From a virus (lineage: Duplodnaviria; Heunggongvirae; Uroviricota; Caudoviricetes): a DNA stretch of 44,072 nt. Where the stretch lies: IMG/VR virus record IMGVR_UViG_3300045988_043987; one strand, written 5' to 3'. Below, in pieces: positions 5,424 through 44,072 of the stretch. The notes beneath the pieces were generated by a model that made no database searches, was not told where the DNA came from, and was given only the letters and a program-made list of their open reading frames with translations. How positions within the stretch are numbered: the stretch's first letter is position 1; each line of letters opens with the position of its first letter. Made by a program: the position numbers and the translations under genes.

Positions 5424-5456
5424 CGAATAGTACCCTATTATATTGGTGTCTGCAAA
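5424..5456. promoter_or_regulatory. conserved dyad operator/promoter motif, copy 1
   Basis: CGAATAGTACCCTATTATATTGGTGTCTGCAAA; core AATAG-N4-CTATT with TATAAT on the minus strand. Confidence 0.6.
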
Positions 5457-5499: not shown

Positions 5500-6543
5500 A
5501 TGAGCTTACTTACATCGCTAATCAGCCACCAGATATGGCTGCAACGCACCGCATCCGGCGAAGTGAAAGACCTTGCACCGTTTATTCAGGAGATGCGGGA
5601 TGAAATCAAACGGCAGGTGCTGTTATTCGGTGACGACGGGCGAAGCACAGCGCGCCTGAATAAACTGTTACGCGACCTCGAAGAAGCATTGACCGGACTT
5701 ACGGGTGACTGGCAGACAAAGCTGACAGAAGACCTTAAGGAACTGGCAGCGTATGAGGCTGAGTGGAACGTAAAGACACTTACCGCCAACGTAAATGCGG
5801 AATTTGTTACACCTACCGCCGAACAGGTGTGGGCCGCCGCCGAGTTTCAACCGCTCTCATTAAGCGACAAACCAGTTGATTTCACCAAGCTGATGTCGGG
5901 CTGGGGTGAAACAGAAGTCGCGCGCCTTGTAACCGGCGTTAAAATGGGTTTCGTACAAGGCCAAACCACACGGCAGATTGTTAAAAGCGTAGTCGGCGCT
6001 GGCGGACTGGCAGACATCTCGGAACGAAACGCAGCTACAGTAATACGTACTGCGCTGTCTCATGTGTCCAACGAAGCCCGTAACGAGACGTACCGCCAGA
6101 ACGACGACATCATTGAGAAATACGAAATAGTCGCCACACTCGACAGCCGTACATCAACAATATGCCGTAGCCTGGACAGGCAGGAATACGAAATCAGCAA
6201 AGGTCCGAGACCCCCTTTCCATCCTAACTGCAGAACGACCACTGCGCCCGTAATCAGTTCCGAGTTCGATTTCCTGGATAAAGGTGCAAAACGCGCGGCT
6301 AAGGGTGCGAACGGCGGTACTCAGGTAAGTGCGGACACCACTTACTACGAGTTCCTCAAACAACAACCGGCGTGGTTTCAGGACCAGGCCCTCGGCCCTG
6401 TTCGCGGTAAGATTTTCCGTAACAGCGGTATATCGCCGGAAGAGTTTCGCGTAATATCTGTAGATGGTTTTGGGAATCCGCTCACGCTTAAGCAGATGGC
6501 GGAACTCGATAAACGTGTCGCTGATTATCTGAAAGGGGAATAA
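5500..6543 (+). CDS. head morphogenesis protein (Mu F / SPP1 gp7-like minor head protein)
   Basis: characteristic C-terminal motif ...STICRSLD...PPFHPNCRTT; ATG at 5500 with AGGAGG. Confidence 0.85.
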   Translation: MSLLTSLISHQIWLQRTASGEVKDLAPFIQEMRDEIKRQVLLFGDDGRSTARLNKLLRDLEEALTGLTGDWQTKLTEDLKELAAYEAEWNVKTLTANVNAEFVTPTAEQVWAAAEFQPLSLSDKPVDFTKLMSGWGETEVARLVTGVKMGFVQGQTTRQIVKSVVGAGGLADISERNAATVIRTALSHVSNEARNETYRQNDDIIEKYEIVATLDSRTSTICRSLDRQEYEISKGPRPPFHPNCRTTTAPVISSEFDFLDKGAKRAAKGANGGTQVSADTTYYEFLKQQPAWFQDQALGPVRGKIFRNSGISPEEFRVISVDGFGNPLTLKQMAELDKRVADYLKGE

Positions 6544-7006: not shown

Positions 7007-7038
7007 AAAGGCCCCTTATGGGGCCTTAATTTTATTTA
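7007..7038. terminator. bidirectional intrinsic terminator
   Basis: AAAAGGCCCC-TTAT-GGGGCCTT followed by AATTTTATTT. Confidence 0.7.
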
Positions 7039-7578: not shown

Positions 7579-7611
7579 TGAATAGTACCCTATTATGTTG
7601 GGGTGTGCAAA
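7579..7611. promoter_or_regulatory. conserved dyad operator/promoter motif, copy 2
   Basis: TGAATAGTACCCTATTATGTTGGGGTGTGCAAA; minus-strand reading precedes the clamp-like gene's ribosome-binding site. Confidence 0.6.
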
Positions 7612-7661
7612 CTATTTATTAGCCTATTCCAGTTATTCCGCTCAATTGTAAATGTTGGAAT

Positions 7662-7704
7662 AAACTATTCGAATAGTTGACTTTTCACTAAAAATATGCT
7701 AAGC
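7662..7704 (+). promoter_or_regulatory. promoter of ncRNA A with upstream perfect palindrome
   Basis: palindrome AACTATTCGAATAGTT (7662-7677) overlapping -35 TTGACT (7676-7681); 17-bp spacer; -10 TAAGCT (7699-7704). Confidence 0.55.
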
Positions 7705-7710
7705 TCCACC

Positions 7711-7910
7711 TGAGCTTGTGAAGTATGAACAAGCGACCGCGGCGCGGGCAGGTAACGGAGCGGGACGTAAGTCCTGAGTGTAGTTACGCTGACGCGTTCG
7801 GAAGGGCCATACTCTATTGCTTGTGTAAAAAGTAACTGGTTTACTGAGATTACGCCGTTTCTATGTTTAAATGATAAGGACTAGCGCCCCGCTTTATGGC
7901 GGGGCTTTAC
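7711..7910 (+). ncRNA. candidate structured small RNA, paralog A
   Basis: own promoter; 5' hairpin GCUUGU-N9-ACAAGC; internal hairpin GGAC-GUAA-GUCC; conserved 3' segment UUCGGAAGGGCCAUA; terminator-like hairpin GCCCCGC-N6-GCGGGGC plus U-rich tail; paralog at 38625. Confidence 0.5.
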
Positions 7911-7929
7911 TTATCGAGAAAGGAGAAAC

Positions 7930-8316
7930 ATGAATCTTAAAGCAACTGTCGTAGCGGGAGCATGTTTCATCATCCTGGCTTACGCACACGGCATCCACCA
8001 GTATCGCAGCGGCTGGCACGAAGGCCGGGCGAATCTCGTTTCGCAGCAACAGCAGAAAGCACAAGCTGAGTTAGCGAAGAAAACACAACGGCAGCAGCAG
8101 GATGAATCAAAGGCCGCAGCCGCTGACAACGAAGGCAAGACGAAATCAGAGGTGATTACCCGTGAAGTCGTTAAGTACATTAAAACGCCTGGCCGCAGCG
8201 TGTGCACTTTTGACCCTGAGCGCGTGCAGCTCAAGTCCCGCGCCGTCGCAAACGCAAATTCCATCCCCGGATATGACGATGATGCAGCCTCCGTGCAAAC
8301 TGGCGCCGCCAAGTAG
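7930..8316 (+). CDS. i-spanin (Rz-like)
   Basis: N-terminal TM helix, Q/K-rich coiled-coil region, o-spanin gene overlapping in another frame. Confidence 0.75.
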   Translation: MNLKATVVAGACFIILAYAHGIHQYRSGWHEGRANLVSQQQQKAQAELAKKTQRQQQDESKAAAADNEGKTKSEVITREVVKYIKTPGRSVCTFDPERVQLKSRAVANANSIPGYDDDAASVQTGAAK

Positions 8317-8425
8317 CGACGCTGACGAGGATTTGGCTATCGACGTTCAGAACGCCGAATGTGTACGGCAACTGAGACTGAAAGTGTTCATGTTGCAGGA
8401 TTACGTGAGGAATATTCTGGAATAG
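8162..8425 (+). CDS. o-spanin (Rz1-like outer-membrane lipoprotein)
   Basis: signal peptide with lipobox LSAC, proline-rich mature part; GTG start with GAGGTGA; begins inside Rz and extends past its stop. Confidence 0.7.
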   Translation: MKSLSTLKRLAAACALLTLSACSSSPAPSQTQIPSPDMTMMQPPCKLAPPSSDADEDLAIDVQNAECVRQLRLKVFMLQDYVRNILE

Positions 8426-8507
8426 TTGCCTTGCATGTTGGAATAATTTATTCTTGACATGTAAATCCGGGTGGCCCGGGTTCCAACGTCCAGGGGACAT
8501 ACTGACT

Positions 8508-10261: not shown

Positions 10262-10277
10262 GGTTAAGCTATAATCG

Positions 10278-13501: not shown

Positions 13502-14668
13502 ATGGCTACAACTCCTTTTAAGGGCGCGACTACCGCGCAATTCTATGTGGCAGAAGTCACCCCGGGCGTAACACCGACTAACCCGGTATGGTCGCCGTTG
13601 CGTAACACAGGTGGCGTCCCCGCTATTACCCGCGACACGCTGACCTCCAACGAGCTGGACGGCAGCCGTGAAACTACGTCCATCCGCACCGGTAACAAGC
13701 AGATTAGCGGGGAATACGCTATTGAGCTTAGCTCGAAAAGCCAGGACGACTGGCTGGCGGGGGCTTTAGGCTCTACGTGGCAATCCGGTAGATCTCTGAC
13801 AGGGCTATCAATTACCGTCGCACCGGCGGGCAAGACGTTCACACGCGCCACTGGCAGCTTCATCACTGACGGCGTTGAAGTTGGCGACCTGATCGCGTTT
13901 ACCGACTTAACAGGCGATAACGCAAAACCATTTATTGTTACTGCAGTAACGGCTACGGTTGTTACTGGTGCAGGTATCCAACACACCCTGACCACCGAGA
14001 CAAAAACCAGTAAGGCTAAAACTGGCGACACGCTGGAAACCGGCAACACGTGTAAGACGTTCTCTATCCTCACCTGGTACAAAGGCCAGTGCGGCGGTAC
14101 TGACGCGTACACGTTAACCAAAGGCGTGGAAGTTTCTGGTTTTACCATCGAACAGGCTGTTAACGCAATGGTAACGGGCAGCTTCCCGTTCATCGGGCGC
14201 AGCCAGGAGATTCTCGCGACGCCGCCGTCTGGTTCCGACTTCTCTTCCGTTACGTTTGGTGACGAGCCGTTCTCTTCGGTTGACGTTTCTGTGTTCGATG
14301 GGTCTACGCCGTTGCGTTGCGACAGCCTGACCATCACCAACGATAACAGCGCGTCTGCGCAGTTCGAACTCGGCAACACTAACGTAGCGTTTGTGGAACG
14401 TAGCCGCGCGGCTAACACCTTCTCCATCTCCGGTAAGCTGTACGACATGGCGATGATTCAGAAGTTTATCAACGAACAGCAGGTAGAGATTAACTCTATT
14501 CTGGCTGGGGTAAACGGGGCTATGTCCTTTAGTCTGAAACGTGCAGAACTTACAGCGGTTACACCAGAGATTGGCGGGCCTGAGTCAATCACTCAGTCTA
14601 TTGAAGGCCAGGCTACGGGCAACCAGTACCAGTCGTCTATTGTTATCCAGCGTATCACCTACGCATAA
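13502..14668 (+). CDS. major tail (tube) protein (putative)
   Basis: large ORF upstream of chaperone/tape-measure genes; AAGAGG ribosome-binding site; followed by strong terminator. Confidence 0.6.
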   Translation: MATTPFKGATTAQFYVAEVTPGVTPTNPVWSPLRNTGGVPAITRDTLTSNELDGSRETTSIRTGNKQISGEYAIELSSKSQDDWLAGALGSTWQSGRSLTGLSITVAPAGKTFTRATGSFITDGVEVGDLIAFTDLTGDNAKPFIVTAVTATVVTGAGIQHTLTTETKTSKAKTGDTLETGNTCKTFSILTWYKGQCGGTDAYTLTKGVEVSGFTIEQAVNAMVTGSFPFIGRSQEILATPPSGSDFSSVTFGDEPFSSVDVSVFDGSTPLRCDSLTITNDNSASAQFELGNTNVAFVERSRAANTFSISGKLYDMAMIQKFINEQQVEINSILAGVNGAMSFSLKRAELTAVTPEIGGPESITQSIEGQATGNQYQSSIVIQRITYA

Positions 14669-17122: not shown

Positions 17123-17156
17123 GTGAATAGTACCCTATTATATTGGGGCGCGCAAG
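17123..17156. promoter_or_regulatory. conserved dyad operator/promoter motif, copy 3
   Basis: GTGAATAGTACCCTATTATATTGGGGCGCGCAAG. Confidence 0.6.
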
Positions 17157-17263
17157 TAGTGTGCTAGAATAAGTTTGCGCCTAGTGTCGCACACGAAAAG
17201 CGGGTGGTTCCCGTCTGGCGCATTTATCGTTAACCTGTAACCTCTTAACCAAAGGATTAAAGA

Positions 17264-24243: not shown

Positions 24244-26238
24244 ATGTCAAGCGGATGCGGTGACGTTTTAAGCCTGGCGGATTTACAAACCGCCAAGAAA
24301 CACCAGATTTTTGAAGCTGAGGTTATCACCGGCAAGTCCGGCGGTGTCGCTGGCGGTGCTGATATTGATTATGCGACCAATGCGGTTACAGGGCAGACCC
24401 AAAAGACACTACCTGCCGTGTTACGTGACGTGGGCTTCCGCCCGGCGGCATTTACGTTCGCCACTGGAGGTACGCTGGGTGTTAATGACGCAGATTTAGC
24501 GGTTTTATGGCCTATTTCCGATGGTGGCGATGGTAACTATTACGCGTGGAAAGGCGCGCTGCCGAAGGTTGTGCCTGCGGCGTCGACCCCTCTAACCACC
24601 GGCGGCGTTTCCGATGAGGCTTGGATGCCTGTGACAGAGGCCGCCTTACGTAGTGATTTAGCTTCCAGTAGTGGGGCTGGTATGATAGGGACTACCTCAG
24701 GCGCTACGGTGCAAGATACTATTAATCAAACAGGAACCCAGCAAAAGGATTTACATCCATTTGTACCAACAGGTTCTTTCGGTTCTGGTGCTTCTTTCAC
24801 TTCTACACTTCAAGTATTCGAACATAATGGCGAATATTATTCATACAAAGGACCAATTTCACCAGGTTCTACAGTCCCGGCAACACCATCATCCGATGCA
24901 AACTGGAAAAAAGAACCCGTGTCTGACTATATTGAAAATTACGGCGGCGGCGTGCATGTTGCCGACCAAACACCCGCGATATTAAAAGCTATAGATGCTG
25001 GTGTACGACGCATTGTTCTACCCAAGGGTGAGCTTAGGATGTCACCTTGTACCATACCGGGATACACCCAAGGGCTAACTTTTGTAGGTCAAGGTGCTAA
25101 CCAGGCGTACTCAGGTACTACAGTAATAAAACCGTTGAACGATGGTCAGAACTATATTTTTGGCTCTGGTGACACTAATGATGGGCAAGATAGTATTAAG
25201 TTTGAAAACATCCAGTTCGACGGTGAGTGGCGGTGCAACCACGCCATACTGCATACTCGTGGTGCCGGTTGGTACTACGAGAAGTTAACTGGCAAGAGAT
25301 TCAATACGTGGTTTATCTACGACGGTCAAGGACTTGCCAGATTTAGAGATATTTATTGCGAAGCCACTGATGCATCAGATATCTCAATCCGTGCAACGGG
25401 GGGTGGCATACGGGTGTATAGCGACTCTGTCCTGGACACTGTGGAAGTGTACGGAGGAAGCTGCCCATTAAGGTTATCAGCCGGTGGCAATCGAGCTAGC
25501 AATATCTTTTGTAATGGAGGGTATGATATCGGCGCTATAGCTTTAGAGCCACAAGATACTTCAACAAATCATATAAACACGGCGTTAAGTAATATATATA
25601 TAGGTGAGAGTACTAATACATCAGGTGTAGCTATCCCAATTTTAGCACTGTATGGAAACTCCGTAAGAAAAGTAGAATCTGTGCAAATATCTAACGCTCA
25701 TTTTGTTCATGCATCAACCACATTGAATACTAACATGACAGTTATAAGGGCTGATAAAGTTAATGGTTTTGTTATGTCTTCTTTTGATGCACTTGCCATG
25801 GGAGAATACAGCACATCTAGCCGACGTACATATAACTTCCTTAATGCAACTAATTCTACATCTATGTTATTTTCTGCTGGCAGTATTAGAGGCGTAAATA
25901 ATAATCCAATAGTATTGGGTGATGGATGCTCATTGAGCATAGATGCAGTTGAGTTTAATGGCTGGGGTACAAACTCTGATTCTGGCACTGAAAACAAAGC
26001 CGCTATCAGAACCACATCCTCCGATGCAAGGTGCGTGATAGGCTCATCATGTAACTTTACCGCAAGTCAAACAGACTCATACGCCGTTTGTGCTTATAAT
26101 GAGTTTACGGTTAGCGCATCGATACTTAACATAAACTATAGTAGTTCTACAATATTCTACCCTGCTAACGTTAATTACAGTTACATATATAAACGTCCCG
26201 GTGGTAAGATAACTTTAGTTAACACTTTTAGTGCGTAG
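24244..26238 (+). CDS. tailspike / receptor-binding protein (putative beta-helix)
   Basis: 664-aa ORF at end of tail module; N/S/T/G-rich repetitive C-terminal region. Confidence 0.7.
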   Translation: MSSGCGDVLSLADLQTAKKHQIFEAEVITGKSGGVAGGADIDYATNAVTGQTQKTLPAVLRDVGFRPAAFTFATGGTLGVNDADLAVLWPISDGGDGNYYAWKGALPKVVPAASTPLTTGGVSDEAWMPVTEAALRSDLASSSGAGMIGTTSGATVQDTINQTGTQQKDLHPFVPTGSFGSGASFTSTLQVFEHNGEYYSYKGPISPGSTVPATPSSDANWKKEPVSDYIENYGGGVHVADQTPAILKAIDAGVRRIVLPKGELRMSPCTIPGYTQGLTFVGQGANQAYSGTTVIKPLNDGQNYIFGSGDTNDGQDSIKFENIQFDGEWRCNHAILHTRGAGWYYEKLTGKRFNTWFIYDGQGLARFRDIYCEATDASDISIRATGGGIRVYSDSVLDTVEVYGGSCPLRLSAGGNRASNIFCNGGYDIGAIALEPQDTSTNHINTALSNIYIGESTNTSGVAIPILALYGNSVRKVESVQISNAHFVHASTTLNTNMTVIRADKVNGFVMSSFDALAMGEYSTSSRRTYNFLNATNSTSMLFSAGSIRGVNNNPIVLGDGCSLSIDAVEFNGWGTNSDSGTENKAAIRTTSSDARCVIGSSCNFTASQTDSYAVCAYNEFTVSASILNINYSSSTIFYPANVNYSYIYKRPGGKITLVNTFSA

Positions 26239-33074: not shown

Positions 33075-33106
33075 TGGTTAGAAATATAATAGCTAACTAT
33101 TCAGGT
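33075..33106 (-). promoter_or_regulatory. sigma70-like promoter (TTGACA-17-TATATT) with dyad operator in spacer
   Basis: minus-strand GTGTTGACA, 17-bp spacer containing TGAATAGTTAGCTATT, -10 TATATT; upstream of SSB gene. Confidence 0.6.
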
Positions 33107-35167: not shown

Positions 35168-35200
35168 GTATGCACTAACTATAATAGCTAACTATTCATT
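35168..35200 (+). promoter_or_regulatory. dyad operator/promoter motif, copy upstream of helix-turn-helix gene (site 1)
   Basis: ATGCAC-TAAC-TATAAT-AGCTAACTATTCA. Confidence 0.55.
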
Positions 35201-35638: not shown

Positions 35639-37896
35639 TCCAAATCCTCATCTGTCACCACCAGCATTTCATTCGGTTCGTATATTGTCTTCGGAATTTT
35701 GTTGTCGTTTATACCCCACGGCAGCCGGTACTGCTTAGGTATAGGTCTGTTGTTGCCATCCAGACCTGAGACGATAACCCCAGCCTCGTGCATCTCTTCC
35801 AGTTTCTTTCTAAGGTCGTTATTGGCGTTAATTGGTACGCCATAACTATCTTCTTTCGCGGCTTTGACGATAGCCGACATAGAGAACCCTCGCTTATCGT
35901 CGCCCTGCTCCTGCAATTTACCCAATGCGTAAATAACCGTAGCCTCTTTGGTGTCCAGTTTCTCGAACTGGCCTACCTTTTCTTTAACGGCTTCCTTCTG
36001 TTCGTCGGTCATACCTTCTACTTTCTTCACGAAGACAGAGAAGGCGTTAAAGTTAACAAAGACATCGATGTGCGGGTTTCCTGCGTCAAAATCGCGGACA
36101 TCATCACTACTGTACCCTTCCGGAAGACCCATGAAGTTGTGAGTTGGCTCTTTCTTTTTCGGTGGCTCCGCTATCTGAATCTTCTGTATTACAAATCCTC
36201 TGGCTTTCTGCCGTTCTCCGTTTCGGTTCTTTATGTGATACAGGTTTATCCCTAAGTTATTGTCGTTGTCAGGCTTATGCAGGAACATCCCGTTATCGAT
36301 GGAGTTGTGAAAGTCACTTCCACCCTTCGGCATCATGCCGTTTTCCGACGGTACTGTTTCGTCGATGTTTTTAGTCGGGTGCACCATAGCACCTACCGCG
36401 GCGTTAAGCGTCGACGCTATTTCGTTAAGTGCCTGCGCCGCTTCTTTCATTGACCTGTTGTCGTTTTCGTCAAAGCCAGGTATGCAAGTTTGCAGGGTAT
36501 CAAACGTAACCTTTACAATTTTCTCTTCACCGGCAACACGGCGCATCATTCTCACCACCTGACGTCGCCATGCTTCGTCGAGTAAGTTACATCCCTCCGC
36601 AACACAATCGATAATGTGCAAGCGGTCCAAGTTATCGCCGAGGGCAATCTGCAAAGATTTTTTATGTCGCTCGAACGACCGCACACCTTCACCCGCAAAA
36701 ATAAACGCATGACCTTCCGCTACCTCAGCCCCGCCGAACGCATATCTTTTTTCGGCAGCAATAGCGGCGTCAATCGCCATACTAAATGTTGACTTACCGG
36801 TATGCGACTTTGCACAAATGTAGAATGATTCGTTAGTCTGCATAAGACCATCTACGACGGAGTATGCAGGTTCTTTTTCTAATTCCGGCTCGTCTTCAAG
36901 GTCTTCCAGCGTGCAAGTTACAGGTTCCTCGTTCTCTGTGCGGTGCAGTTCTTCAATCTCTTCATCAGGTAAATCAGGCAGAGCCGCGCGAATGCTGTTA
37001 ACGCTGATAGGTTGCTTGTCTACGTTAAGCTCGTCAGGTAGACCACACATACGCAGGGCCAAATGCTGCCTACGGTTAAGCTCGGTGCAAGCGCCGTTGT
37101 TTGTATGCTGGCAGACAAAGCGCACTTCTTTACCGTCTAGCATGATGCTGGTGGAGCCTTTGCCTGTGTGCAGATGTTCGTTAGGGCATGGCACTTCGTA
37201 CCCGCGCCCGGAAGATAAAGCATCAAGCCCAAGCTCGGCTTCGCAGAAATGCGCTATATCTGCGTTAAGCCCATGCTCATCGGCAGCAAGTGTCTTGGCT
37301 TCGCGTTTACGCAACCCCATCTCTTCGGCTTTCTTGATGTACCGCTCGGCACGGATAACACGCCCCTCTGTAACCGTTATCTTCGACTCTTTATGCGGCA
37401 GGTAGATAAGGCGGTTGCCATCTTCTGTGCAGTGGTCACGCAGCGATTCATCTATTTCTAACTCTGCACAAATAGCCCGTTGCACCATCCACGCATCGTT
37501 AGAGTTAAACGGAGTGCGAGCCGGAACCAGAACGCGGAATGCGTAATCCCCGTTTTTACACGCGTGCTGATGCGATGCCGTTGTGTGCAGAATATTGAAG
37601 AACGGCGCGTTCTTGAATTTGCGTGTCAGGTCGCGGTACTGAGTACGGTTGAGATGGTCGAAGTCGAACTTAACCACACTGTCTTCCAGAATCGCATTCT
37701 TACGGCGACCGCCAACAGGAGCAATAGCCTTCTGCTTAATCTTAGCCGCGTCGTATTCTTCCTTAGTCCACGACGGGTCCACGGACAAACGCTTCGATGT
37801 ATCGCAGACGTACTCTACAAACTGCTCCAGCGGCATTTCACGTGCTACAGGGTTTTTATCGAATGTGTTACGCAGCGTTGCAAAAACAATATTCAT
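35635..37896 (-). CDS. DNA primase / P-loop ATPase (primase-helicase-like replication protein)
   Basis: Cys/His zinc-binding cluster, Walker A SHTGKST, 753 aa. Confidence 0.75.
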   Translation of the reverse strand: MNIVFATLRNTFDKNPVAREMPLEQFVEYVCDTSKRLSVDPSWTKEEYDAAKIKQKAIAPVGGRRKNAILEDSVVKFDFDHLNRTQYRDLTRKFKNAPFFNILHTTASHQHACKNGDYAFRVLVPARTPFNSNDAWMVQRAICAELEIDESLRDHCTEDGNRLIYLPHKESKITVTEGRVIRAERYIKKAEEMGLRKREAKTLAADEHGLNADIAHFCEAELGLDALSSGRGYEVPCPNEHLHTGKGSTSIMLDGKEVRFVCQHTNNGACTELNRRQHLALRMCGLPDELNVDKQPISVNSIRAALPDLPDEEIEELHRTENEEPVTCTLEDLEDEPELEKEPAYSVVDGLMQTNESFYICAKSHTGKSTFSMAIDAAIAAEKRYAFGGAEVAEGHAFIFAGEGVRSFERHKKSLQIALGDNLDRLHIIDCVAEGCNLLDEAWRRQVVRMMRRVAGEEKIVKVTFDTLQTCIPGFDENDNRSMKEAAQALNEIASTLNAAVGAMVHPTKNIDETVPSENGMMPKGGSDFHNSIDNGMFLHKPDNDNNLGINLYHIKNRNGERQKARGFVIQKIQIAEPPKKKEPTHNFMGLPEGYSSDDVRDFDAGNPHIDVFVNFNAFSVFVKKVEGMTDEQKEAVKEKVGQFEKLDTKEATVIYALGKLQEQGDDKRGFSMSAIVKAAKEDSYGVPINANNDLRKKLEEMHEAGVIVSGLDGNNRPIPKQYRLPWGINDNKIPKTIYEPNEMLVVTDEDLE

Positions 37897-38481: not shown

Positions 38482-38589
38482 TTTTATATCTCCTGTTTGT
38501 TTAGTGAAGCCAAGTATAGGATAGCGTGAATGTAAAAGCAACCAAAACACCACACAAAGTTACTAAGATACAAAAGATGCTACTGGTAT

Positions 38590-38618
38590 TGACTTTTACT
38601 AAGAAATATGCTAAGCTC
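38590..38618 (+). promoter_or_regulatory. promoter of ncRNA B (TTGACT - 17 bp - TAAGCT)
   Basis: same hexamers and spacing as ncRNA A promoter. Confidence 0.55.
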
Positions 38619-38624
38619 GTCCTG

Positions 38625-38836
38625 AGCTTGTGAAGTATGAACAAGCGACCGCGGTGCGCGGCAGGCGAAACGAGCACGTCTCGACGTGTGGAGTGAGTCT
38701 CGCTGGCGCATTCGGAAGGGCCATAGTCTATTGTTATTCCCGCCTAAGTATCTAAGTTACTGATTTGACGTAGGTTAGAACCGCAAGCTCACTCACTCAC
38801 TCTTGGTGCCTTCGGCACCCCGTTCGTTTCGTTTCG
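38625..38836 (+). ncRNA. candidate structured small RNA, paralog B
   Basis: shares 5' 37 nt and 3' UUCGGAAGGGCCAUA segment with paralog A; internal hairpin CACGU-CUCG-ACGUG; terminator-like GGUGCC-UUCG-GCACC plus U-rich tail. Confidence 0.5.
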
Positions 38837-38885: not shown

Positions 38886-38919
38886 CTTGCACACCCCAAT
38901 ATAATAGGATACTATTCAC
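38886..38919 (+). promoter_or_regulatory. conserved dyad operator/promoter motif, copy 4 (TTGCAC-N7-TATAAT-AGGATACTATTCAC)
   Basis: perfect TATAAT at 38900-38905; about 30 nt upstream of ribosome-binding site of 38950 gene. Confidence 0.6.
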
Positions 38920-38949
38920 TTATCGAAACGAGACAGAGGAGTGAGGGTT

Positions 38950-39141
38950 ATGTTTAAAAAGGGTCAGTTGGTTAAATGCGCCGACGGTAAACACGGTGTG
39001 ATTGAATTAAAATCCGCTTTATTTCCGGGAGAGTACGTAGTTACTGTGCAAAAGGTGAGAGGAGTAAATTCGGTGGTATACGTAGCGGAAGAGAATTTAA
39101 AGCTAATCGGCAACAATTTTAAATTCAAAGGGGCGAAGTGA
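38950..39141 (+). CDS. hypothetical protein (63 aa)
   Basis: GAGGAG ribosome-binding site; first gene of rightward early cluster. Confidence 0.6.
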   Translation: MFKKGQLVKCADGKHGVIELKSALFPGEYVVTVQKVRGVNSVVYVAEENLKLIGNNFKFKGAK

Positions 39142-39347
39142 TGGACGAATTATTCGAAGAACTGAAACATCATAAACTGGAGAAAGTGCATTTCCAGGTA
39201 AACAGATACGAGGTTATTTTATTCGACGGCCCAACTATTTCTTCCGGGGTATGGAAGGACCTGCTAAAAGTTTTACGTGCGCTACGAACGGCATCGAATC
39301 ATGATGCCAGTGCCGACGACTCTGAGGGAGTTGCCGTTAATGAATAA
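39138..39347 (+). CDS. hypothetical protein (69 aa)
   Basis: ATGA-coupled ORF. Confidence 0.55.
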   Translation: MMDELFEELKHHKLEKVHFQVNRYEVILFDGPTISSGVWKDLLKVLRALRTASNHDASADDSEGVAVNE

Positions 39348-39606
39348 CGCTGAACTGGAAAAAGTCTCCGACACTCTTCATAAGGTACGGGTCATGCGTC
39401 GGGGTGCTGGGCTGGAGCAGTTTTATAACATGTGGCGCACCGCGACGCGCGACCATGAGTTTCTGCGAACAGGTTATTATTTCACTAAAGGCATTATCCC
39501 GATTCGCGCACGCGGGGATTACGGATGGGTTCGCGAGACACCTAATCTTATGTGGTGCTGGTACTGCGGTGAGTTCTGGGTGCACGTTAAAGAGAAGATG
39601 GGGTGA
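39340..39606 (+). CDS. hypothetical protein (88 aa)
   Basis: ATG at 39340 overlapping upstream stop. Confidence 0.5.
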   Translation: MNNAELEKVSDTLHKVRVMRRGAGLEQFYNMWRTATRDHEFLRTGYYFTKGIIPIRARGDYGWVRETPNLMWCWYCGEFWVHVKEKMG

Positions 39607-40406: not shown

Positions 40407-40412
40407 AATTTA

Positions 40413-40447
40413 CTTGCACGCTAAGATAGAATAGGCTACTATTCACT
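40413..40447 (+). promoter_or_regulatory. conserved dyad operator/promoter motif, copy 5 (TTGCAC-N7-TAGAAT-AGGCTACTATTCAC)
   Basis: same architecture and leader (CACAAACGAGAGGAG) as copy 4. Confidence 0.55.
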
Positions 40448-40473
40448 TACACAAACGAGAGGAGAGACAGAAT

Positions 40474-43719: not shown

Positions 43720-43933
43720 TGGACGAATACGAAGGTGTTTAGTATTCTGGTTAGGCCAAGTTTTTCGTATTTGCTAATGGAGGCCGATATGGCACTGCAA
43801 GAGTTCACCAACCCTGTTAAATCGCGCGACGATATTGACGAGTCTGTCGGTTACGGCGAAGGTTGACACCTAAGACTAATCCGACGATACTTAAATCACC
43901 TCCTGTTCCATCCCTCTACTCTCCAGTTTTATC

Positions 43934-43962
43934 CCGGCCCTGACCTAGCCGGGATTTTTTTT
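43934..43962 (+). terminator. intrinsic terminator
   Basis: CCCGGC-N9-GCCGGG followed by T8. Confidence 0.7.
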
Positions 43963-44072
43963 ATCTATTTTCTATAATGACTAGTTGACTATTATCTACG
44001 ACCCTACTATATTTACTCCATCGACAACGAGAACGGAGTAGAGAGAAATGATGACTAAGATTAAGCATACCG
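43954..44072. repeat. terminal direct repeat, right copy (identical to 1-119)
   Basis: exact 119-bp repetition of the window start. Confidence 0.9.

Follow-up and report, generated by a model that had tools for sequence, protein, structure and literature searches.

The DNA just ahead of the spanin genes Rz and Rz1 raises the question of whether a stretch of about 200 nt makes a discrete small RNA from its own promoter, as an earlier note had proposed, or serves as the leader of the genes that follow it. The stretch lies in a window of 44,072 nt, which we found to be a complete Kagunavirus genome of 43,953 bp (Guernseyvirinae; a K1G/K1ind-like E. coli siphophage), the terminal 119 nt of the window duplicating its opening 119 nt and the gene order agreeing with that of annotated relatives. 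Rightward (+) unit 1 has its origin in the divergent control region near 38.6 kb, contains small early genes, the holin and endolysin genes, further small genes and the terminase, portal and head-morphogenesis genes, and stops at a bidirectional terminator (7008-7027); + unit 2 opens at ~7.7 kb with Rz/Rz1, the scaffold gene and the gene for the major capsid protein, and the minus strand carries several inserted genes along with those for replication. The genes for holin and endolysin sit apart from the Rz/Rz1 leader locus. Strong internal terminators of the + strand are found at 10277, 14673, 17816, 40144 and 43934, with promoters downstream of most of them (38887, 40414, 43985, about 8426 and about 17143), and a search of the window for tRNA and tmRNA found none.

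Two promoters and two copies of an RNA core

We found two near-identical sigma-70 promoters, P(A) and P(B), each ahead of an RNA core of ~108 nt (copies A and B). The two loci comprise the following features, in coordinates of the window.

7658-7677, no strand assigned: inverted repeat GGAATAAACTATTC (7658-7670) overlapping the palindrome CTATTCGAATAG (7666-7677), centred at about -48 of P(A)
7677-7705, + strand: promoter P(A), with -35 TTGACT (7677-7682), a 17-nt spacer and the extended -10 TGcTAAGCT (7697-7705; TAAGCT at 7700-7705)
7714-7734, + strand: P1, a 6-bp hairpin (GCUUGU/ACAAGC) with a 9-nt loop at the extreme 5' end (+3), from minimum-energy folds
7737-7801, + strand: P2, a long irregular stem, from RNAalifold and covariance-model alignments
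7802-7819, + strand: conserved 3' tail AAGGGCCAUACUCUAUUG, from variant comparison
7820-7885, + strand: A-specific, AU-rich 3' half of the leader, which aligns partly with type J (see below) and not with copy B
7886-7913, + strand: GC-rich hairpin GCCCCGC-UUUA-UGGCGGGGC (7886-7905) followed by UUUACUUA; -16.5 kcal/mol, terminator-like, 24 nt ahead of the Rz AUG
7914-8425, + strand: ribosome-binding site (AAAGGAG), Rz (7930-8316) and the embedded Rz1 (in the ORF 8162-8425), annotated as i-spanin and o-spanin in phage Shashou
38589-38617, + strand: promoter P(B), with TTGACT (38589-38594), a 17-nt spacer and TGcTAAGCT (38609-38617)
38624-38733, + strand: core of copy B, with the P1 of copy A, a different P2 interior and apical hairpin, and the tail AAGGGCCAUAGUCUAUUG
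38734-38836, + strand: B-specific 3' half, with a CUCA repeat and the hairpin GGUGCC-UUC-GGCACC (38805-38819), then CCGUUCGUUUCG, a poor U-tract
38887-38940, + strand: second promoter (TTGCAC, 17 nt, TACTAT, with an AATAG..CTATT palindrome) and 5' untranslated region of the first early gene (38941); a different promoter family, downstream of RNA B

The TTGACT-17-TAAGCT promoter described in the earlier note is present at its place and in addition carries the TG of an extended -10; transcription from it would start at about 7712. A generic promoter scan overlooked P(A) because TAAGCT matches at only three of six positions. Specifically, the A and B loci share 89% identity over 70 nt (-35 to +35), a 31-mer of the transcribed region is present exactly twice in the window (none expected from shuffles), and both copies also have TTCGGAAGGGCCATA in common. 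The second copy that had been placed at 38590-38836 under the same promoter is therefore genuine for the promoter and the first ~108 nt, but the 3' halves of A and B differ. The repeat and palindrome at 7658-7677, a putative regulator site, are missing ahead of P(B), and the motif ATGTTGGAATAAnnTATTC recurs at 8435-8453 (0.18 expected).

Variants were gathered from phage genomes, IMG/VR and metagenomes, and a covariance model, R1, was built on type A-like sequences. R1 recognised copy B with 76.9 bits (E = 9e-17), and copy B showed the same architecture when folded. Within Kagunavirus, copy B falls into at least four sub-types, and sequence comparison gives good support to a duplication, in this genus, of the promoter and the first ~108 nt to the head of the rightward early operon. 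The core was absent from the early region of the two Jerseyvirus genomes (S100 and Shelanagig) and the one Cornellvirus genome examined; in S100 and Shelanagig the early leader is different and shows a marginal resemblance to a segment of the 3' half of the late leader in the same genome (score 37 versus 22 +/- 3.4 for shuffled sequences). In the Kagunavirus genome, the TTGCAC-17-TACTAT promoter supplies the early genes with a separate short 5' untranslated region.

Fold, coding potential and allelic forms of the core

Three allelic forms were found upstream of the spanin genes, namely type A (181 phage records, Kagunavirus together with 65 Salmonella phages), type J (269 records; the allele of most Jerseyviruses, at the same locus) and a rearranged Cornellvirus form. 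In type J, P1 is wholly replaced and the interior of P2 is different, but the base of P2, the tail UUCGGAAGGGCC, the motif CUAUAYUGCUU, the GC hairpin and the ribosome-binding site are kept; R1 scores for type J were 37-39 bits. Types A and J differ at about 40% of positions with the fold retained, and on this comparison they are natural functional equivalents. The Cornellvirus form (SP-031) gives no R1 score and retains a 5' hairpin, a shortened P2 and GACCGCG / CGGAAGGGUC. The homologous promoters read TAGACT-17-TGyTACGCT in type J and TGaTAACCT in Cornellvirus, and GGAATAnnnTATTC is retained upstream of them in both Jerseyvirus and Cornellvirus. The -10 sequence is repeated in the initial transcript of type J (TACGCT twice, at about +1 to +6), imperfectly repeated in type A (TGAGCT) and not repeated in Cornellvirus.

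Together, the A, J and Cornellvirus forms cover essentially all of the ~464 records in which the capsid protein reaches 80% identity or more, beyond which the nearest capsid proteins stand at 42%. Across about 2.3 Mb of candidate loci, R1 had no match outside Guernseyvirinae; viral contigs scanned twice with exact patterns and filtered with R1 yielded solely Guernseyvirinae-type copies, and a metagenome scan with a loose, gapped pattern, also filtered with R1, returned only such copies among the matches listed. Among those matches, the RNA family thus appears to be confined to Guernseyvirinae.

The consensus core of ~108 nt consists of P1, a 2-nt linker, P2 and the unpaired tail AAGGGCCAUAnUCUAUUG. 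Both the 5' hairpin of 6 bp (GCUUGU/ACAAGC) and the GC-rich helix claimed for the transcript were found. P1 keeps its location at +3 while its sequence is entirely exchanged between types, being UACGCU/AGCGUA in type J and showing U.G or extended pairing in the Ivi-type, with four of six pairs altered on both sides. P2 has a base of the form CCG-C-GG-NGC ... GCN-UU-CGG, a middle of the form CAG-GUAAC / GUUAC-G-CUG, an asymmetric internal loop with a conserved 3' side, GAGUG(U)A, and an apical hairpin at 7762-7775 in which all five pairs covary; one base pair of P2 occurs as C-G, U-A and A-U. The internal hairpin with a GNRA loop is present as GGGAC-GUAA-GUCC, but its loop is not conserved (GUAA, GUUA, GUCA, GUUAA, AUUA, AUCA and CACA). 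Similarly, a conserved stretch thought to be single-stranded is there, but CCGCGG in the basal part of P2 is the predicted partner of its UUCGG part, so that only AAGGGCCAUAnUCUAUUG stays unpaired. At the level of primary sequence, conservation over types A, B and J and the Cornellvirus variant is highest in GGAAGGG(C/U)C, and the invariant nucleotides lie at the P1/P2 junction, the P2 base, the GAGUG side of the internal loop and the GGAAGGGYC tail.

In an alignment of 28 distinct sequences that was guided by R1, and hence biased towards structure, 94% of cells held standard pairs compared with 80.2 +/- 0.7% after shuffling, and 17 of the 29 pairs had changed on both sides, a figure matched by none of 500 shuffles; these are the compensatory changes in homologs whose absence, according to the earlier note, would have spoken against the RNA. 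Pairing fell to 31-48% when partners were slid by one to three columns. Two analyses free of that bias agreed, in that RNAalifold on a MAFFT-based alignment recovered the same fold, and the same fold was the minimum-energy structure in six independent variants folded singly; for the two type J variants, the homologous fold came within 0.3 kcal/mol and 3 kcal/mol, respectively, of the minimum. The fold is specific to the + strand because of two G.U pairs that never vary, in agreement with the orientation of the promoter. Folding energies were modestly better than those of shuffled sequences (z = -1.9 for the 201-nt RNA A, -1.0 for the 225-nt RNA B and -1.2 to -3.9 for variants of the ~108-nt core), so that the evidence for structure rests on covariation. 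The core is thus a well-supported, lineage-specific, non-coding, structured RNA at the 5' end of transcripts from a strong sigma-70 promoter.

Two further pairings were considered and rejected. A pseudoknot joining AGUAUG of the P1 loop to CAUACU of the tail lacks support, given a tail position that varies among C, G, A and U while the loop is fixed, and given the Ivi and Golestan variants, which break the pairing; a long-range pairing between the 5' end and the segment before the Shine-Dalgarno sequence, proposed by RNAalifold, was no better than in shuffles (p = 0.12-0.69). Searches of the whole window against Rfam 15 at gathering thresholds gave no match, and permissive searches (E <= 1-10) with copy A, copy B and type J gave at best 14-23 bits against cut-offs of 35-92. 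A host-derived RNA or a mimic of one was also rejected, as no match was found in 5,426 E. coli genomes, a search in which short seeds would escape detection.

Several GenBank records, including those of Shashou and Shelanagig, annotate a hypothetical protein here, and a product of 36-41 aa with the shared C-terminus AFGRAI(L/V)YC was accordingly weighed as an alternative to the RNA. Many variants allow an ORF of 34-41 codons, which reaches the tail in the AFGRA frame in 7 of 11, but start codons and the frames of homologous nucleotides differ, and the ORF is truncated or frame-shifted in the other four (L014, L025, the Ivi-type and the Golestan-type). ATG is missing altogether from the Ivi-type core; type J has ATGs only far downstream (8-aa ORFs), and its tail-frame ORF begins at GTG. 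Insertions and deletions are not multiples of three while base pairing persists, and no Shine-Dalgarno sequence was seen for the ORF of the core. The earlier note had dismissed a 17-codon MNKRPR frame lacking a ribosome-binding site; the frame, from the ATG at 7725, has 36 codons, but the judgement that nothing convincing is encoded holds, there being neither a conserved frame nor a Shine-Dalgarno sequence. We regard the hypothetical-protein annotation as an artefact, and a small protein as the least probable of the explanations weighed here.

The leader hairpin and transcription of Rz/Rz1

The terminator-like hairpin that had been noticed just before the Rz ribosome-binding site is present (7886-7905). 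Across types, a GC-rich hairpin starts 65-85 nt past the core with a folding strength of -12 to -17 kcal/mol, and it is under selection, its stem showing compensatory variants (CCCCGC, CCCTGC and CCCAGC in type A; CCCGGC and CCCGAC in type J). The sequences that follow it are more variable. Specifically, the U-tract of type A (UUUACUUA) is adequate, whereas those of type J (UUAGCGUA), Cornellvirus (UGUUACGA) and copy B (CCGUUCGU) are poor, with no more than three consecutive U after the hairpins. The fold of the GC hairpin and its spacing of ~24 nt to the Rz AUG are kept with or without a U-tract.

Upstream of P(A), this genome has the strong bidirectional terminator at 7008-7027 and a convergent inserted gene, and no promoter was found in the 13 nt from the leader hairpin to the Rz ribosome-binding site; therefore, Rz/Rz1 must be transcribed through leader A, which agrees with the suggestion that read-through places the RNA in the leader of these genes. 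That copy A is the obligatory 5' leader of the late Rz/Rz1-scaffold-capsid operon in all Guernseyvirinae is well supported by this arrangement. The proposal of a discrete small RNA gene of ~200 nt survives in part: the RNA is non-coding and structured, has its own promoter and has a true paralog, but an end at 200 nt is doubtful, given that the U-tract is adequate only in type A. In most members the hairpin would be unable to act as an efficient intrinsic terminator, which weakens the case for a discrete 200-nt product. Because of these poor U-tracts outside type A and the lack of a standout trans target in the phage, the RNA is, in most members, more probably a cis-acting leader than a terminated small RNA.

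Comparisons between genera suggest that the leader is also mobile. Relative to Salmonella phage S100, positions 7635-7994 of the window are 97-100% identical and the flanks, including the capsid gene, 62-95%; between S100 and Shelanagig the pattern is reversed, with flanks at 82-100% and the leader at 38-65%. From these opposite patterns, we infer that a single unit, made up of promoter, leader and the first ~65-100 nt of Rz, is transferred between genera, and that two alleles coexist in Jerseyvirus. Extreme purifying selection was considered for the S100 island of 97-100% identity and set aside, a laterally exchanged cassette fitting the reversed pattern of S100 and Shelanagig better.

Possible modes of action and their meaning

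The RNA probably controls the expression of the genes downstream. The reading that we rank first, tentatively, is that the core acts in cis on elongation or termination, like the put and nut RNAs. The two-hairpin core would fold on emerging from RNA polymerase and act in cis on its own complex or transcript; P1, at +3, may guard the 5' end against 5'-end-dependent decay, from which 5'-terminal stem-loops protect E. coli mRNAs; and the P1/P2 junction, the P2 base and the GGAAGGGYC tail would form a candidate binding surface for RNA polymerase or an elongation factor (compare HK022 put and lambda nut). Polymerases from P(A) and P(B) may thereby pass the GC hairpin of the leader and the operon-internal terminators at 10277, 40144 and 43934. 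The distribution of the invariant nucleotides is what would be expected where a protein or RNA polymerase binds, and not that of a seed for base pairing.

Several observations are consistent with such elongation control. The two conserved copies, each between a promoter and a GC hairpin, head both rightward operons, following the logic of putL/putR and nutL/nutR; strong + strand terminators lie inside these operons; the invariant nucleotides gather at the junction of two stems, as in put; and compensatory changes preserve the leader hairpin. In addition, neither the early proteins nor two relatives with careful annotation revealed a protein resembling N or Q: the scanned early proteins gave no match to an N-like protein, ten scanned proteins gave none to the Q family, and no Q is annotated in Shashou or Shelanagig. 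A KOW-like antiterminator, guessed from sequence to be the first early gene, had no Pfam support and was dropped. On the other side, the core has no detectable homology to put, and promoters follow most of the internal terminators, so that a need for read-through is not demonstrable. With poor U-tracts in type J, Cornellvirus and copy B, most members may have no real terminator to overcome, and the two Jerseyviruses examined lack the core at the early operon.

The closest known parallel is found in phage HK022, where putL and putR are cis-acting, factor-independent antiterminator RNAs that bind the zinc-binding domain of the beta' subunit of RNA polymerase (PMC9378689). Like put, the core is present in two paralogous copies per genome of a phage with an enterobacterial host; each copy lies at the head of an operon, with a sigma-70 promoter just upstream and a terminator-like hairpin downstream, and has two adjacent stem-loops 1-2 nt apart with conserved nucleotides at their junction. 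The differences are as clear. The two stem-loops here span about 90 nt of the ~108-nt core with a 2-nt linker, compared with ~70 nt and one unpaired base in put; R1 had no match in HK022 (E <= 1), and the putL extracted from it has different helices, with a short GC-rich resemblance in helices that have other partners; and the core occurs in virulent siphophages, with one copy heading the late operon. Rfam holds no put model (it found nothing in HK022), so that its silence is no test against put.

The nut sites of lambda consist of boxA and a boxB hairpin bound by N and Nus factors, and boxA antitermination leaders are also known from rrn and CRISPR operons (PMC7665894). The core resembles nutL/nutR as a pair of promoter-proximal RNA signals at two operons, with a hairpin and a short conserved single-stranded motif; however, its apical loops vary freely, leaving no boxB-like recognition loop, and the tail (CUCUAUUG or GCUAUAUUG) agrees with the boxA consensus, GCUCUUUAAC, at only about 6 of 10 positions. 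We thus found neither a boxA, nor a boxB with a conserved loop, nor, among the scanned proteins, an N encoded downstream, as a lambda-type nut would have. EAR of the Bacillus eps operon and conAn2 of conjugative plasmids are processive-antitermination RNAs (PMC8191782), and, like them, the core is a structured RNA that opens a long operon with internal terminators, but hosts and sequences are unrelated, and no Rfam family matched the Guernseyvirinae core. EAR itself is an Rfam family.

The late leader of lambdoid phages offers another comparison. There, PR' gives a short '6S' transcript ending at tR' before the lysis genes, with read-through under Q, and in Shiga-toxin phages the short transcript is reported to serve also as the small RNA StxS (PMC7547250). 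The locus studied here likewise combines a constitutive-looking promoter, a geneless leader of ~200 nt and a hairpin or terminator directly ahead of lysis and late structural genes, and the -10 repeat of type J lies at about +1 to +6, the place of the lambdoid sigma-dependent pause signal. By contrast, the holin and endolysin genes of Kagunavirus lie elsewhere, a second copy stands at the early operon, and in the Guernseyvirinae leader the RNA fold itself is selected; selection on the fold is not known for the late leader of lambda.

A stronger form of elongation control can be envisaged, in which the core would be a second, structurally unrelated and independently evolved class of RNA polymerase-binding antiterminator or antipausing RNA, marking polymerases from dedicated promoters and traded between genera as a promoter-plus-leader cassette of ~350 bp. 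We consider this stronger form rather improbable.

Almost as likely as elongation control in general is a post-transcriptional role, which we take as a real possibility, in which the leader would set the stability, processing or translation of the message of Rz/Rz1 and the genes downstream. P1 may then be a 5' stabiliser, P2 a site for RNase III or a protein, the GC hairpin a processing or stability element, and the GGA motifs, for example, CsrA sites; such motifs occur at 7757, 7800 and 7877 and in the Shine-Dalgarno sequence. The constancy of P1 at +3 despite full replacement of its sequence suits a stabiliser, and this role also suits a GC hairpin whose fold and distance to the Rz AUG are independent of the U-tract, as well as the exchange of the leader between genera jointly with the first ~65-100 nt of Rz. 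It fits less well with copy B, which is followed by a separate promoter and would thus be dispensable as a leader of the early genes, and the pairing of the 5' end with the pre-Shine-Dalgarno segment, at the level of shuffles, lends it no help.

Ranked third, and in our view doubtful, is a role in trans, in which RNA A (~200 nt) and RNA B (~200-220 nt) would end at their hairpins and act on host or phage targets or on proteins, with read-through into Rz being incidental. Copy B is indeed laid out as an independent gene (promoter, hairpin, separate next promoter), the type A hairpin with its U-tract is a plausible partial terminator, the ~200 nt of type A show little variation over 179 records, and StxS provides a precedent (PMC7547250). 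However, what the paralogs have in common is the heavily base-paired core and not an open seed, no match was found in the E. coli genomes (where short seeds are undetectable), and the best complementarity within the phage genome (z about -4 of 5,854 windows) was the extreme expected by chance. Hfq-binding small RNAs typically carry a long 3' U tail, whereas types J, Cornellvirus and B have poor U-tracts; neither RNA A nor RNA B combines a terminator having a long U tail with an accessible conserved seed.

Unlikely, as is the small protein, is a riboswitch or attenuator, in which the core would be an aptamer sensing a ligand or factor and the downstream hairpin its expression platform: the order of promoter, structured domain, variable spacer, hairpin and gene recalls transcriptional riboswitches, but no alternative pairing between the 3' part of the core and the 5' arm of the hairpin is common to A and B (GGGC/GCCC is possible in A, with nothing comparable in B), the U-tracts of most types are poor, and no Rfam family matched.

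The element is an undescribed RNA family of about 450 related phages, although its general kind, a promoter-proximal regulatory leader of a phage, is familiar. We found no description of it in the literature, the one transcriptome paper on Guernseyvirinae covering genes only, and no description of the timing of transcription in this subfamily. Guernseyvirinae (Jersey-, K1G- and SETP3-like phages) belong to the phages isolated most frequently for therapy and biocontrol of Salmonella and E. coli, and hundreds of their GenBank records leave a conserved RNA at the entry to the late operon unannotated, or mis-annotate it as a hypothetical protein of 36-39 aa; Rfam does not contain it. If the core does modify RNA polymerase, it would join a single other phage RNA known to act in this way without a dedicated protein, and its three natural alleles would be a ready-made mutational series; membership of the put class, as a new variant, would follow only if binding to RNA polymerase holds. 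If it instead acts as a leader for stability or translation, or as a small RNA, it would still be an obvious handle on spanin and capsid expression and for phage engineering.

Promoter-leader cassettes ahead of Rz

Sequence comparison indicates that Kagunavirus and Jerseyvirus exchange the late promoter, its leader RNA and the initial ~65-100 nt of Rz as a single mosaic cassette. Positions 7635-7994 of the window are 97-100% identical to Salmonella phage S100, with flanks at 62-95%, whereas the leaders of two Jerseyviruses, S100 and Shelanagig, differ by 35-62% between flanks that are 82-100% identical. Between the two leader alleles, type A and type J, the 5' arm of the first hairpin, P1, co-varies with the -10 hexamer (window 7700-7719; Shelanagig 5820-5845). 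Specifically, type A has the -10 TAAGCT followed by TGAGCT in the P1 5' arm, and type J has TACGCT in both places and so carries a -10-like repeat at roughly +1 to +6. In lambdoid late promoters, a sigma-70-dependent pause signal is located at about +1 to +6, the position that the type J repeat also occupies. Several GenBank records of relatives label the leader as a "hypothetical protein" of 36-39 aa (e.g. MK931440 5621-5731; NC_073195 5859-5978); these annotations are probably false gene calls, because their reading frames vary from allele to allele.

Candidate signals separating late and early leaders

An inverted repeat, GGAATAnnnTATTC, is found at the following positions:

Window 7658-7670: about -48 of P(A), the promoter of the late leader
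Window 8441-8453: immediately 5' of the scaffold gene
Shelanagig 5767-5790 (Jerseyvirus) and SP-031 25435-25455 (Cornellvirus): kept 5' of the homologous promoter

P(B), the promoter of the early copy, lacks this repeat, which is probably the target of a phage regulator that tells the late copy from the early one. In their early control regions (S100 39070-39590; Shelanagig 36115-36490), Jerseyviruses have a different, non-coding leader of ~280 nt, with the promoter TTGACA-17-TAAGTT, the 5' hairpin GUAACUU-C-AAGUUAC and a segment, CUUCCUUCC, complementary to GGAAGG of the late-leader tail; in S100 it also contains a strong terminator, GGGCAGGC-UUAA-GCCUGCCC-UUU.

Other candidate RNAs and genome ends

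Two further non-coding features were located in the window:

43863-43962 (+): candidate small RNA gene with promoter TTGACA-17-GATACT, ORF-free stretch and terminator
17143-17263 (+): possible promoter and candidate structured leader of ~90 nt directly 5' of the tail-chaperone gene

The first resembles a small RNA gene in its own right: the ~65 nt after its promoter contain no ORF and include AAAUCACCUCCUGUU, a 10-nt match to the 3' end of 16S rRNA (anti-Shine-Dalgarno AUCACCUCCU), and the stretch is closed by a strong terminator, CCCGGC...GCCGGG plus nine T, with the next promoter, TTGACT-17-TATATT, at 43985. The second, with a possible promoter TTGGGG-16-TAGAAT, and a long hairpin, UGCGCC...GGCGCA plus UUUAUCGUU, is predicted to be a further structured leader where rightward transcription restarts past a minus-strand gene cluster.

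The two ends of the window carry an exact 119-nt duplication (1-119 = 43954-44072), which is either a terminal repeat or, for a circularly permuted genome, an overlap left by assembly. In SP-031, G-rich repeats with GGGGGAGA-type iterons lie 3' of the helicase-primase gene (13750-13990), possibly representing a replication origin.

A second promoter family

Promoters of the form TTGCAC-N17-TACTAT are present at:

5424-5455 (-), 7579-7610 (-) and 17124-17155 (-)
38887-38918 (+) and 40408-40460 (+)
33082-33103 and 35177-35198

They share the 5' UTR ACTTATCGAAACGAG and a palindrome, AATAG-N-CTATT, overlapping the -10. The early genes and every inserted minus-strand gene are predicted to be under these promoters, and the family is probably under repressor control.
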